Below are positions 3,480 through 49,069 of a DNA stretch of 64,000 nucleotides, one piece after another. Location: the IMG/VR virus record IMGVR_UViG_3300036770_007283. One strand, written 5' to 3'. The translations under genes and the position numbers were made by a program. The stretch comes from a virus (taxonomy: Duplodnaviria; Caudoviricetes). Under the pieces are notes generated by a model that ran no database searches, was not told where the DNA came from, and saw only the letters and a program-made list of their open reading frames with translations. How positions within the stretch are numbered: the first letter of the stretch is position 1; each line of letters begins with the position of its first letter.

Positions 3480-3527
3480 TAAAAAAACCTAATTCACACG
3501 TGCGTGTGCGTGCGCGTGTGAATTAGG
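3480..3527 (-). terminator. intrinsic terminator after ssb
   Basis: 13-bp stem CCTAATTCACACG/CGTGTGAATTAGG followed by a T-run on the minus strand. Confidence 0.8.
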
Positions 3528-22654: not shown

Positions 22655-24019
22655 CTATTTTAGTAACTTAAAGTCTTCTTTTATTTCTGATATTTTAGAG
22701 TTGATTATACTAAAAATTTCTGAAAGTCCCTCTTCCTCGGATCTAGTTTTTGCGGATAGGATTCTAGAATTAGGCGAAATATTAATAAAATCTGTTTTGT
22801 GGTTATTTATCTTTTGTATTATTTCTTGATTATTCAAATCTATTTCTTTATCCAAAGAAAGATTTAGACCAACCAAATCAAACAAAAGTTTTCTATCTAA
22901 ATTATTTTTGGTTAAAGATAACAGCTTCCAGAACGGATACATTAAAATAGATTTATAATAGATTTTTTTCTTACCCAACATTGCTTTGGTGTTGGAGAAG
23001 GAATTATCAAAAAGATAACTAATATCTCTTCCATCAACTTGAATATCCTTATAAAGCAAGGTCATCTTTTCGTTACCCTCTCTTGGTATAGGTAATAAGA
23101 TTCCAAAAACTTTATTTTGTATCATCCTTTCTTCATCTTTATGAGGGCTAATTACTATTGTTTTTTTAGAATCAAAAAGTAAGTTACCTAATAATGGCCT
23201 GGATAGGAGTATTCCAGAATCATGGGCTGGTGAAGGAAACTTTCTCCTATTAAATTTTGAAAAATCTAAAACATTCTGCAATGGATGAAGCTTATTAAGA
23301 TAATAATTCTCGCCCATAGTTCCCTTTGTTAAGGATGGTAGTATATCTAAGGACTCATTATAATAAGAAAAAATTTCTTCATGAAGCTTTTCAATAAGAA
23401 GATCCAAATCAGATTCTTTTAATCCTTCTAGGCTTTGAATAGTTGATAATTTTCTCTCAAGCACTTTGCCGATACAATATAATGTGGTTTGGATCCTTGC
23501 TCGTTTTTTTGCAAGGGTCACCGGTTCTATCTCCATTAGACTATGAAGATTTTTCTTATCTAAGATTTTCTTTTCTACTTCAAAGCTGGTTCCGTTCTTT
23601 ACCGCTTGTTTTTTTGCTAAATCATGATAAATTTCATAATTTTGCACGGGATTAACTTCTTGTATTTTGGTGGTGGTATAGTCCAAGACTATTTTTTTTA
23701 GATACTCAACCTTAGACCCGATCCTAGAAGCTATTTCAGCCTTATCATTTTCTAGATGATAAGGCTGAGGAATATTATAAGTTTCATAAAATTGTTTTCT
23801 CGAAGTGCGATAAATAAGTATGGCTGCAGCAACATCTGCAGCATCTTCAAAATTCATATCTTCTAATGGTAAGTTAACAAACTCTCTTTCGATATCCAAA
23901 ATTCTTTTGTGAGAATTGTTGGGTGATTTATGTTTTTCTAAGATTGATATTTTATAAAAAGATATATTCTTTTCATTCTCTATATATCTTAGTACTTCAC
24001 CCCTGGCCTCTTTCAACAT
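22655..24019 (-). CDS. hypothetical protein
   Basis: 454-aa ORF overlapping the sigma gene. Confidence 0.7.
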   Translation of the reverse strand: MLKEARGEVLRYIENEKNISFYKISILEKHKSPNNSHKRILDIEREFVNLPLEDMNFEDAADVAAAILIYRTSRKQFYETYNIPQPYHLENDKAEIASRIGSKVEYLKKIVLDYTTTKIQEVNPVQNYEIYHDLAKKQAVKNGTSFEVEKKILDKKNLHSLMEIEPVTLAKKRARIQTTLYCIGKVLERKLSTIQSLEGLKESDLDLLIEKLHEEIFSYYNESLDILPSLTKGTMGENYYLNKLHPLQNVLDFSKFNRRKFPSPAHDSGILLSRPLLGNLLFDSKKTIVISPHKDEERMIQNKVFGILLPIPREGNEKMTLLYKDIQVDGRDISYLFDNSFSNTKAMLGKKKIYYKSILMYPFWKLLSLTKNNLDRKLLFDLVGLNLSLDKEIDLNNQEIIQKINNHKTDFINISPNSRILSAKTRSEEEGLSEIFSIINSKISEIKEDFKLLK

Positions 24020-34017: not shown

Positions 34018-34051
34018 TATTACTCCGTACACGCGCGTGTGCGTGTGCAGT

Positions 34052-45809: not shown

Positions 45810-45984
45810 GGCTGTATTCTAGAACTTCTACGTCTAGATTGGAATTGCATTGAATCCAAGAAACATCTTCTTTAGATAGATTCTTGTGAATATCAACTCT
45901 TCCACAGACCTTATTGGTGACTTTGACGGTGATATTTTTATCACTCCACTTTTTTGGTGCTTTACTATCCATGATTTCCTCCAT
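45772..45984 (-). CDS. hypothetical protein
   Basis: 70-aa ORF. Confidence 0.5.
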   Translation of the reverse strand: MEEIMDSKAPKKWSDKNITVKVTNKVCGRVDIHKNLSKEDVSWIQCNSNLDVEVLEYSLDKKRRPKTKDD

Positions 45985-46831
45985 TCAAATCCTCCAAGCT
46001 TTTAACACTAAATCCTGCGGCGTTTCTATGTCCACCGCCTCCGGGAAACTGCTTTGCAATTTCGGAAACATCTAAGCCTTCATCTGTTGATCTCAAGGAA
46101 AAGACGAATTCTTCTCCATCATAATGATACCCGGCAGAAAAAGATTCGCCAACTGCTAAATCACCCAACATTTCAGAACGAAAGAACGGTGTGTTTAAAA
46201 TAGGAACTTCAAAACCTTTGATCTTGGCACGATATGTATTTTTAATAATTGAGTTTATCAAAGTTTTGTTATATCTAAGGATTGCAGCTCCTTCGTTTAA
46301 TAATTTTGAGAAACCCTCTGGTGTTTCTATCAGGTTATTTAATTTATCCCAAGTTTCAAAGTTTTTGGGATAAGAATCTATTGCGGTTAGCAATTCTCTT
46401 GCATAAGGTAAAATGCAATTTTGTGGACCATGCAAATCACGATCCTCGATATATTGAAGTAATTTTGGTGTCTCGTCATCAGGAAAGCAATAATCCCAGG
46501 CCAAGATAGCACCGGAATGATCCATGTCAAAATGGGTAAAGCTTAGATCGCCAAGTAATTTCTGTGCAGATAAGTGGTGATCTAAAATAAGAAACTTTTT
46601 AGCAATTTCATTTATAACAATGGAGTCTTCTCGTTCCAAGGAAAAATCTACCATAATAACTTCCCGATCTCTTAAATCTTCGGGATTCAAACCTTTGAAG
46701 GGAGCAAGAATATGGGCTAATGGCTGGTAGTCTATTGTGTCACTATATTTCTTCCAAAAGGAAAAAGCCGCACCAAACCCATCAGGACATTCATCATGAT
46801 AAATTAAGATTGGCTTGTTAGTGGTTGTCAT
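45965..46831 (-). CDS. DHH/DHHA1 phosphoesterase
   Basis: YHDECPDG, VDFS, LDHH, GGGHRNAAGF. Confidence 0.9.
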   Translation of the reverse strand: MTTTNKPILIYHDECPDGFGAAFSFWKKYSDTIDYQPLAHILAPFKGLNPEDLRDREVIMVDFSLEREDSIVINEIAKKFLILDHHLSAQKLLGDLSFTHFDMDHSGAILAWDYCFPDDETPKLLQYIEDRDLHGPQNCILPYARELLTAIDSYPKNFETWDKLNNLIETPEGFSKLLNEGAAILRYNKTLINSIIKNTYRAKIKGFEVPILNTPFFRSEMLGDLAVGESFSAGYHYDGEEFVFSLRSTDEGLDVSEIAKQFPGGGGHRNAAGFSVKSLEDLNGGNHG

Positions 46832-47847
46832 ATTGTCTCCGGAGAGAATGAATATTCTATCGCTTTAACTAAATGACTTCTTTCTGATACCTCTTGTGAT
46901 ATAAAATTTGTCATTTGTTTTAAATCTTTAAAATCCTGTAAGGTTTGTTTATAGAATAACTTATAAACCCCTACTTGATCAAGTATATCACATTTACTAA
47001 TAATTAAATTAGTTGTTCCAGAAATATTAACCGCCTCAATTAAGTAATCCAAATTTAACCAGTTAACAACCCTTCTTCTCCCCGTTGTAACACCATACTC
47101 TTGGCCTAAACGACCGATTTCAGATAGAATGGGATCTTCCAACAATGACTTGGGGAACAATGGGTCTTCACCGCTCCTTGTATCATAAATTTTAGCCGCA
47201 CCATAAATATTTTTAATTTTTTGTGGTGGGAAACCTAAACTACAAGCAGCATAAGGAAGTGTATTACTAGAGGTTACATAAGGATAATTTCCTTGATCTA
47301 AGTCAAGCCAGAATCCCTGGGCACCCTCGCATAATATCCTACCTTGAAGGTCACTTTGCCACAATAAATTCTTAGAAAGAACTTCTTTGGCTAAGACACC
47401 AGTTCTTGCAGCTTTATCAGCATAAACTGGTGCAATCCCTCTTGAGGTGGTTCCTAATTTGGCAGCTAGATTTTGTTTATCTTGCTCAATATGCTTTTCT
47501 TGAATAATATGACAATTAGGATGAACCTTAACCAGCGAGATATCAAATCCATTATCTGACAGATAATCCAATTCTTTGTTAAAGGATTCTGGATGCAAAA
47601 CACAACCTGGCCCGACTAATGATTGGACGCCATAAAAAACGCCAGAGGGAACTAGGTGTGTTTTGTATTTTTTACCATTAACAAAAACTGTATGTCCCGC
47701 ATTATTTCCACCGCCCCACCTAGCCACTAATGAATAATCACCTGAGCTTGCTAGTTGGCTTGTAATTTTTCCTTTTGCTTCGTCGCCTGGGGTTTAACCC
47801 CAAGCTAAACCAACAACGATATCTACGCTGTCAATCTGCTTGGACAT
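46828..47847 (-). CDS. purA: short-type adenylosuccinate synthetase with an in-frame TAA at codon 18 (recoded or pseudogene)
   Basis: AAGGAGG SD + ATG 47847: MSKQIDSVDIVVGLAWG*TPGDEAKGK...RWGGGNNAGHT...EGAQG...GVTTGRRR, all one frame. Confidence 0.9.
47785..47805 (-). other. stop-codon hairpin inside purA
   Basis: GCTTGGGGT-TAA-ACCCCAGGC: 9-bp stem (one G.U pair) with a UAA triloop. Confidence 0.85.
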
Positions 47848-47891
47848 TAAGCACCTCCTTTATTTTAAGGGTTGTGGTTCTAGCTTTAATC

Positions 47892-49037
47892 TTATACGTA
47901 ATCTTCTTTCCAAGTAACTTCTTTTGATTCACCCTCTCCACGAGCCAACCTACCTTGGATTTCAACAAAGTTTTTTACTTCTTCAAGAACAGAGGGTGTG
48001 GTGGAATTCAAGAATGTGAAAATATAGTTTTCGTTAAAATATTCCATGCTAATTAAATCTTTAAAATGAAACAGGAAGTTATTTACAACATTAGATAATG
48101 TCTCCCTATCCATTGAAAAAATTGTCCTTCCGTAAGCATCCTCAACCTCAACTACACTTTTTGAAATTTCTAAGTCAGCTTCCTTCCCAGACTTAATCTT
48201 TTTATTCAAGTCTTCTGCTTCATAGAAAATTTGGGTAATTTCTTCGCAAGTGTTTTTGTCAAACTGTAGCTTATATCTCTTGGAATATTTAAATGCCCGT
48301 TCGGCAGCCCAAATTTTGCCAATAACAGAAGAATTTCTACGAACATTTCCAAAGGCAAGTAGCCGTTCTTGAAACAATTGTTCGAGTCCGTCCGCGAAAT
48401 AGAAGCTTCCATTATAGTACGCAGCACAACAATTTAAGATATCAAAAGTATCAAATAAAGTTTGAATATCCTTGATTTTCTTTTTAATTGCTTGGATCGG
48501 CTTGCAGAAACCATTTGTTTTTTTAGAACGAAAGGTGTTAGCCCAAGAAGTAGAATTTGAGATAGAGTGAATTGAATCTAAACCAAGAACATCCATCCTA
48601 TCCTTATAGAATGCTCCTGACTGATAAAAGGTGGGCGCACAACCATAAATTTTATGGTTCTTGGAAGGTGGGTCTACTTCATGATCACCTACCAAGAAAT
48701 AGAATGAATTGCCTGCATCCCAGATTACATTATCTTCCATAAACCAAAGATCAATATCACCAAACTTAAAAGATTCTGTTTTTTCAATTTGGGTATTTCC
48801 AGGCGTAGTAGTGTTGTTAAGAATTTCAAAAATCTTAAAATTATCAAAAGAAGCTTTGTTATCAGAATTTAGAATCTGCTCTAGCTTTTCTTTGACAGCC
48901 GGATTTTTAAGGCACATAATATCCTGATAAAGCGAAACAATAAACCCACCTGCAATAACTGGATTTAGCTTGAGGATATTTTCGGGCACAAACATTTTTA
49001 GAATTTTTTCTGCATTCTCATGCTTAACAATGTGCAT
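47892..49037 (-). CDS. nucleotidyltransferase-fold protein (polyA/CCA head-like)
   Basis: IAGGFI...GDIDLWF...FDILNCCAAY; start moved to MHIVK (GGAG SD). Confidence 0.6.
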   Translation of the reverse strand: MHIVKHENAEKILKMFVPENILKLNPVIAGGFIVSLYQDIMCLKNPAVKEKLEQILNSDNKASFDNFKIFEILNNTTTPGNTQIEKTESFKFGDIDLWFMEDNVIWDAGNSFYFLVGDHEVDPPSKNHKIYGCAPTFYQSGAFYKDRMDVLGLDSIHSISNSTSWANTFRSKKTNGFCKPIQAIKKKIKDIQTLFDTFDILNCCAAYYNGSFYFADGLEQLFQERLLAFGNVRRNSSVIGKIWAAERAFKYSKRYKLQFDKNTCEEITQIFYEAEDLNKKIKSGKEADLEISKSVVEVEDAYGRTIFSMDRETLSNVVNNFLFHFKDLISMEYFNENYIFTFLNSTTPSVLEEVKNFVEIQGRLARGEGESKEVTWKEDYV

Positions 49038-49069
49038 ATAAACTCCGGGGCATAGCTCGGCCCACAAAA

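Follow-up and report, generated by a model that had tools for sequence, protein, structure and literature searches.

How might a phage gene still yield its enzyme when an in-frame stop codon sits within the P-loop and the frame beyond it stays intact? The question is raised by a purA gene in a stretch of 64,000 nucleotides (hereafter the window), which comes from an IMG/VR phage contig of 178 kb with an estimated completeness of ~52%. As argued here from comparative sequence data, the best explanation, which we hold with a probability of about 0.65, is that the 12 nt interrupting this gene are a programmed translational bypass element, over which the ribosome would hop from GGU to GGC. Under this explanation, the 12-nt element would be the shortest member of a family of cassettes present in the purA genes of large marine phages.

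An interrupted P-loop in a phage purA gene

An initial annotation of the window had described a purA gene interrupted by a 12-nt hairpin with a stop codon in its loop, and the insert is indeed present where it was placed, as seen in the sequence, its translation and its folding. Around the insert, the minus strand reads GCT TGG GGT TAA ACC CCA GGC GAC GAA. The features of the locus are the following:

47892..49067, minus strand: 391-aa ORF upstream of purA, with no Pfam match at E <= 0.01
47854..47860, minus strand: Shine-Dalgarno sequence AAGGAGG, 6 nt 5' of the purA ATG and kept in relatives
47847-47845, minus strand: ATG start codon of purA (window sequence)
47797..47847, minus strand: purA part 1, 17 codons, MSKQIDSVDIVVGLAWG, covering strand beta-1 and the start of the P-loop
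47785..47805, minus strand: hairpin with a 9-bp stem, GCUUGGGGU / ACCCCAGGC, including one G.U pair, and the loop UAA (folding)
47799-47797, minus strand: proposed take-off codon GGT, the last codon of part 1 (window sequence)
47794..47796, minus strand: in-frame TAA directly after the take-off codon, forming the hairpin loop (sequence, translation and folding)
47785..47796, minus strand: 12-nt coding gap TAA ACC CCA GGC (window sequence)
47787-47785, minus strand: proposed landing codon GGC, the last triplet of the gap (window sequence)
46831..47784, minus strand: purA part 2, 318 codons from the resume codon GAC, which encodes the P-loop Asp (DEAKGK...; translation, Pfam and PDB)
46830-46828, minus strand: stop codon of purA (window sequence)
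45965..46831, minus strand: DHH/DHHA1 phosphoesterase gene, 288 aa, downstream of purA and syntenic with it in interrupted and uninterrupted relatives

Once the 12 nt are deleted, translation regains the P-loop W-G-D-E-A-K-G-K. The codons after the gap are GAC GAA GCA AAA GGA AAA, the frame stays open up to 46830-46828, and the 318 codons 3' of the gap are intact, with no second defect. Part 2 matches Pfam family PF00709 (adenylosuccinate synthetase) with an E value of 4e-75 and keeps the catalytic motifs NAGH, GTTxRGI, EGAQG and TTGRRR as well as the P-loop GDExKGK. In a comparison with the PDB, part 2 matched solved PurA structures better (E 4e-55) than it matched PurZ (1e-14); an identity as PurZ, of the 2-aminoadenine pathway, was rejected because the protein is much nearer to true PurA. 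The protein annotated by gene callers is a 299-aa form truncated at its N-terminus, for which a GTG start was chosen (e.g., 47727). No close relative in culture is present in the GenBank phage collection, where identity reaches 37% at best.

Set against the PurA chains of the PDB, the phage enzyme (46831-47847, minus strand) is a short form of ~335 aa, in which ~55-70 residues of bacterial PurA are missing between query residue 139 and residue 215 of chain 4m0g. More than 570 relatives of this short form occur in viral contigs, giant-virus bins included.

The hairpin is built from decoded sequence on one side, with the Ala-Trp-Gly codons as its 5' arm and the gap as its 3' arm. Folding of 47805-47785 gave the claimed 9-bp stem with UAA as its loop; the local minimum free energy is -19.6 kcal/mol (z = -3.3), and none of 200 shuffles folded equally well. 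A search of Rfam gave no intron or ribozyme match at E <= 1 for the window or for L006, a relative carrying a longer cassette (see below).

The insert closely resembles an inverted copy of the 9 nt before it, a point in favour of a sequencing or assembly artefact such as a fold-back chimera, which the initial annotation had named as a possible refutation of its own reading. However, an independent Logan assembly of run SRR10854513 is 100% identical over positions 46228-47833 of the window (1,606 bases), insert included, and variant inserts occur in at least 8 other samples and lineages, diverged relatives among them. An assembly fold-back is therefore discarded, and the chances of any artefact are negligible.

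The gene order around purA is the same with and without the cassette. The ORFs flanking the gene encode no HNH, GIY-YIG or LAGLIDADG domain, and a homing-endonuclease hypothesis was consequently rejected. For the ORF at the upstream position in several relatives, precomputed Pfam hits mark Gad2 (PF26128) at L316:265-1368, L318:178-1302 and L325:1-250.

Related cassettes at a single codon boundary

When the 299-aa ORF was used in a protein search, about one fifth of the best 120 protein clusters proved to be similarly truncated calls, and all 12 truncated PurA clusters with DNA examined were interrupted at the TGG GGT site of the P-loop. Altogether, ~166 phage purA loci from viral and metagenome contigs were compared. 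Most of them read W-G-D-E without interruption, and every interruption lies at the same place, directly after the TGG GGT of the P-loop. A related insert in other phage purA genes, identical or covarying, had been proposed as a check, and 12 distinct cassettes were found at the identical codon boundary in many metagenomes, in lineages that do not count as phylogenetically independent tests. Some interrupted alleles are present on 9-15 contigs from different samples. Together with two cassettes in terminase genes, the collection amounts to 14.

The cassettes come in two designs. Short-type cassettes place the stop in a loop that is closed by pairing between the Ala-Trp-Gly codons and a 3' arm with the sequence CCCCAG(G). 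In the long type, the GGT is followed by TGA or TAA within a stem capped by CC(C)-UUCG-(G)GG, and then by an A-rich spacer. The purA cassettes are these:

Short type, window: TAAACCCCAGGC, 12 nt
Short type, L016, L245 and L326: 12 nt, ending in AGT
Short type, L316-L320 and L323: 13 nt, ending in GGT or GGA
Short type, L321 and L322: 14 nt, ending in GGC or GGT
Long type, L006, L183, L012, L144 and L325: 29-32 nt, ending in GGT, GGA or AGC

The gap lengths found in purA are 12, 13, 14, 29, 30 and 32 nt, and all three frames occur. The word minimal, initially applied to the element of the window, is fair, as no gap in the family described here is shorter than 12 nt. Within the clade of the window, the hairpin is shared by gaps of 12, 13 and 14 nt, the latter two ending in GGT, GGC or GGA.

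Despite this variety, some elements do not change. A stop directly follows the take-off GGT in 14/14 cassettes, always TAA or TGA and never TAG, and the take-off codon sits in the 5' arm of a stem in all of them, window included. GGT is the take-off codon in 12/12 purA cassettes, versus 45/120 uninterrupted genes with GGT at this position (counts that ignore kinship). The last triplet of the gap is GGN in 9 and AGY in 3 of the 12 purA cassettes; over all 14, there are eight cases of GGT or GGC, three of GGA and three of AGY (AGC or AGT), that is, GGN in 11/14. In the long-type stem, compensatory changes affect two pairs (from G-C to A-U and from C-G to G-C), and the 3' arm of the short-type stem is kept in 7 variants with loops of varying length.

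The gap of the window is a multiple of three, and readthrough of its UAA would give, in this case only, a PurA with four extra residues in the P-loop (G-X-T-P-G-D). However, this hairpin recurs in the closest relatives with gap lengths of 13 and 14 nt, for which readthrough cannot work; moreover, TAA is the commonest genuine terminator in the genome, tRNA genes were not found on the contig, and the insertion would displace the catalytic Asp. As a general mechanism, readthrough is ruled out by the occurrence of gaps in all three frames, and for the window we consider it highly improbable. Since gaps of 12, 13 and 14 nt, in three frames, occur in one clade with the downstream ORF intact, the gap must be skipped. 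A suppressor tRNA or an altered code was also rejected, given that no tRNA was found on the phage's own contig and that all three stops serve as terminators.

A near-complete relative of 332 kb with a 29-nt cassette (G001) has 25 predicted tRNAs, including tRNA-Gly GCC and UCC. At L312:5576-5651, this genome shows a tRNA with a CUA anticodon, an amber suppressor labelled as Pyl by ARAGORN; the TAG stop is used in 0/14 cassettes.

Two further peculiarities were seen in purA relatives. All long-type genes (L006, L183, L012, L144 and L325) have a Cys codon (TGY) two codons before the take-off Gly (GLCWG), a position where Cys is rare and where Ala is found in the short type and in 68/117 uninterrupted genes; the Cys could either have been transferred along with the cassette as part of its flank or be needed by the long design. 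Two other purA lineages (L055:1990-2015 and L112:1990-2015) carry one extra A within the P-loop codons (TGG GGG GAT GAA A GGC AAA GG), which leaves part 1 and the remainder in different frames, with AGG and an early TAA following in the zero frame. This extra A could correspond to a +1 frameshift site at the rare AGG, to an alternative ATG start (ATG AAA GGC) or to a recurrent sequencing error.

Purifying selection on both parts of the gene

The window forms a clade with four 13-nt genes (support 100/96), to which the 14-nt gene is a weakly supported sister (86/63). Across the main ORF of the all-interrupted clade, synonymous sites are near saturation (pS 0.57-0.73) and pN is just 0.07-0.18; for part 2 of the window against other interrupted relatives, the values are 0.13-0.18 for pN and 0.64-0.73 for pS. 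In the 17-codon part 1, interrupted relatives show 0-5 nonsynonymous differences per 40 sites versus 1-8 synonymous differences per 11 sites. Other pairs of interrupted purA genes behave like uninterrupted pairs in their pN/pS. These figures indicate that both parts of the purA ORF are under purifying selection within a clade composed of interrupted members only. Relaxed selection downstream of the insert had been anticipated as the mark of a simple pseudogene, and it is not what part 2 shows, with pN well below pS.

The selection data weigh directly on the idea of a dead or dying gene, knocked out by a selfish or protective insertion and with a merely residual open frame. An in-frame stop within the P-loop and a protein truncated to 299 aa by gene callers are what such a gene could look like, but the near-saturated synonymous sites of the interrupted clade come with very few amino acid changes, the 318 codons contain no second defect, part 1 and its Shine-Dalgarno sequence are conserved, and 12 lineages carry no further lesion. 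On the basis of the low pN relative to pS in both parts of the all-interrupted clade, we exclude a pseudogene, and any version of a decaying purA has a very small probability.

Another way to use the two parts would be to make two products, a released peptide of 17 residues and a PurA started internally (e.g., at GTG 47727), acting apart or as a split enzyme. The GTG start was indeed the one picked by ORF callers. However, all relatives conserve, in frame, the stretch with the P-loop that runs from the gap to this GTG (DEAKGKITSQLASSGDYSLVAR), no start codon or Shine-Dalgarno sequence is present at the resume site, and a PurA lacking the P-loop would not bind GTP. Selection on the in-frame ORF of the interrupted clade excludes a product that starts downstream of the P-loop, and the two-product scheme as a whole is about as improbable as readthrough.

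The long cassette in terminase genes

In two related phages, the same long cassette interrupts the gene of the terminase large subunit, at two different sites:

L179:4520-4577, minus strand: terminase cassette GGT-TGA-CCC-UUCG-GGG, just before the Walker B region; VGEG|LDYMVIDEAA
L184:4474-4530, minus strand: terminase cassette GGT-TGA-CCC-UUCG-GGG, after TPEG; TPEG|YNWIY

Each of the two genes is uninterrupted at the site of the other, and at both sites a hop from GGT to GGT or GGA gives exact colinearity with the uninterrupted terminase copy. The peptides upstream of the terminase take-off are unrelated to those of purA. Given this exact colinear restoration at two terminase sites, the long cassette appears to work in unrelated protein contexts.

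Ribosome bypassing or RNA excision

The comparative evidence (lineages, gap lengths, selection and terminase cassettes) effectively excludes readthrough, artefact and pseudogene. The hop from GGU to GGC, which the initial annotation had suggested for the ribosome, gains support from the invariant GGT-stop, the three gap frames, the mostly Gly landing and the selection on both parts. In the proposed mechanism, the ribosome would translate the 17 codons of part 1 and hold peptidyl-tRNA-Gly on GGU with the UAA in the A site. Slow termination would then allow the peptidyl-tRNA to unpair and the mRNA to slide by 12 nt, so that the same tRNA could re-pair with GGC. With decoding resumed at GAC, the product would be an ordinary PurA that carries the P-loop W-G-D-E-A-K-G-K. 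As for the hairpin, in which the decoded Ala-Trp-Gly codons pair with the gap, it would most likely promote take-off, set the hop distance or both.

The main rival is an excision at the RNA level, in which the hairpin would be cut from the mRNA and the ends rejoined, as in a tiny protein-assisted 'intron', and a continuous purA message would then be read. The predicted junction peptide, QIDSVDIVVGLAWGDEAK, is the same after a hop or an excision. Excision would likewise be independent of the frame and would account for gaps of 12-32 nt; gaps ended by AGY would be tolerated if the cut lies after them, and the near-complete relative G001 encodes two proteins of an RNA-ligase family (PF09414). These ligases, however, lie in a tRNA region and are more likely tRNA-repair enzymes, and RtcB was not found. 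Moreover, excision leaves unexplained why the first gap codon is a stop in 14/14 cassettes, either in the loop (short type) or in the stem (long type), and why a GGT always precedes the gap and a GGN mostly ends it. To this we add the lack of Rfam intron or ribozyme matches and a size of 12 nt, far below any known intron; to our knowledge, excision of such small mRNA inserts has no precedent in phages or bacteria. An RNA excision, if true, would be categorically new, and we judge it unlikely, even if clearly ahead of the other alternatives. We infer that the gap is skipped by the ribosome and not removed through RNA processing.

Several observations count against bypassing. Of the 14 cassettes, three have AGC or AGT as their last triplet and three have GGA, and landing on these triplets would need one first- or third-position mismatch to be tolerated, the first-position one presumably being a C.A mismatch. 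At take-off, the nascent chain has just 14-17 residues of an ordinary PurA N-terminus. In the window, there is no Shine-Dalgarno-like triplet 5-7 nt before the landing GGC, where the bases are A and C only. During take-off, the E and P sites would be filled by the codons that form the short-type 5' arm, and for this reason the short-type hairpin cannot be an A-site hairpin like that of gene 60. Finally, synthetic stop-hops are inefficient in E. coli (PMC5009743).

Taken more broadly, the data point, with slightly better than even odds, to a family of autonomous, RNA-only bypass cassettes in marine phages, ranging from a 12-14-nt form with the stop in the hairpin to a 29-32-nt form with a UUCG hairpin. 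Such cassettes would make the ribosome hop without a special nascent peptide and with only two of three landing bases matched, and could do so in genes as unrelated as purA (at the P-loop) and terminase (at two sites). If true, the 12-nt form would be the smallest programmed hop in nature, as well as the first in-frame stop-hop of natural origin.

Comparison with known bypassing systems

Efficient programmed bypassing has long rested on T4 gene 60 with its topoisomerase homologues and on one yeast mitochondrial system, and its requirements (nascent peptide, A-site hairpin and matched landing) were worked out on gene 60 alone. The mitochondrial system, the byps of Magnusiomyces capitatus, consists of mobile-looking inserts of 27-55 nt in essential genes that are skipped by the ribosome, with dozens of copies per genome and an unassigned sense codon. 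The phage cassettes differ from byps in occurring once per genome and in having a stop codon instead of a sense codon.

As in T4 gene 60 and its myovirus topoisomerase homologues, the purA element has a Gly take-off codon with a stop directly after it, a take-off codon on the 5' side of a stem-loop, and a matching or wobble-related Gly landing codon beside the resume codon, which in the window means GGU to GGC with GAC restoring W-G-D-E. Both systems have gaps that can break the frame, and in both a phage enzyme gene is interrupted where its conservation is high. Gene-60-type cassettes are characterized by a CC-UUCG-GG tip, an A/U-rich spacer and GGU/GGC take-off/landing pairs (Manning & Atkins, 10.1101/2022.08.31.505936). 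The tip and the spacer are shared by the long purA cassettes only, as in the window the loop is UAA and the 5' arm consists of upstream coding sequence.

The differences are also numerous. The bypassed gap is 50 nt in gene 60 and 20 nt in the Aeromonas clade (10.1101/2022.08.31.505936), compared with 12-32 nt here, and the interrupted gene is purA (also terminase) instead of a topoisomerase. There is no adjacent MobA-like endonuclease or gene split, no dedicated nascent-peptide extension (the 17 residues of the window are also present in uninterrupted genes) and no mini-Shine-Dalgarno sequence 5-7 nt before the landing codon. The stop of the purA and terminase cassettes is TAA or TGA, unlike in gene 60, and some landing triplets are AGY. 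The landing rule across the purA/terminase family is thus looser than that of gene 60, whose family does not show first- or third-position landing mismatches (10.1101/2022.08.31.505936). An A-site hairpin is described for T4 gene 60 (PMC5462505), whereas the short-type hairpin is made from decoded codons and has the stop in its loop. Owing to the missing endonuclease, nascent-peptide signal and Shine-Dalgarno-like triplet, the looser landing and a hairpin that is not of the A-site kind, the purA element is treated as one that would work like gene 60 and not as its homologue.

Closer in size are the synthetic stop-hops of E. coli, in which peptidyl-tRNA makes a short hop over a stop to a matching codon, as proposed for the in-frame case of the window; those constructs, however, are engineered, of low efficiency, 6-9 nt long and devoid of a hairpin (PMC5009743). 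According to a 2016 review, shorter-distance counterparts of gene 60 had long been expected, and in-frame stop-hops were not known from nature (PMC5009743). A further parallel is the hop between g6 and g7 of the terminase of Streptomyces phage phiHau3, with the junction GWG|NDP and support from mass spectrometry (PMC10732093). Both cases share a short gap in a phage gene and a take-off at a Gly after Trp (GWG|NDP and LAWG|DE), and terminase also hosts the long cassette here. Unlike the purA element, the phiHau3 take-off needs a rare UUA (UAA in the tested construct) and was proposed to be regulatory (PMC10732093), and the sequences and host group of phiHau3 are unrelated to those of the purA cassettes. 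Full-text literature searches found no report of these cassettes or of bypassing in purA.

By analogy with T4 gene 60, a plausible but speculative origin of the element is an insertion into the best-conserved region of the gene that removed a site targeted by a nuclease or by homing and left expression in place. One may then ask why such inserts favour the most conserved active-site DNA of phage enzymes, be it through avoidance of nucleases or homing, or through dosage control. The translational switch suggested in the initial annotation is also speculative. A second, unrelated and much smaller natural family would also offer a compact test bed for ribosome take-off, sliding and landing, with a series of gaps (12, 13, 14, 29, 30 and 32 nt), two hairpin designs, imperfect landing triplets and two host genes. 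On the practical side, annotators of phage metagenomes should bear in mind that a split terminase or a 'PurA' call truncated to ~300 aa may represent a recoded gene that is intact.

Searches for further cassettes and other palindromes

Each phage genome or record contains one cassette, in the case of purA. Scans of the phage's own 178-kb contig for the combination of stop, hairpin, matching codon and downstream ORF gave no convincing second case: the hundreds of hits from generic stop-hairpin scans were ordinary gene junctions, and a scan for GC-rich hairpins recovered terminators and in-ORF stems only. The short palindrome (TGGGGTTAAA..CCCCA), when scanned against the database, had 113 hits, which were chance palindromes or terminators except for two more purA contigs. 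A looser UUCG-hairpin pattern gave 100 hits, mostly true gene ends followed by the hairpin and a new start codon; the internal interruptions among them were those of purA and the two terminase cases.

Other palindromes are present in the window, within a genome of 35% GC. Two of them, at 3488-3527 and 34027-34048, are GC-rich and carry a GTGCGTGTGCG-like motif, and one of the two forms an 18-bp stem (CCTAATTCACACGTGCGTG...). A third one, at 23734-23770, is a hairpin with a 17-bp stem (TTTCAGCCTTATCAT...ATGATAAGGCTGAGG) that lies within an open frame of 454 codons on the minus strand.
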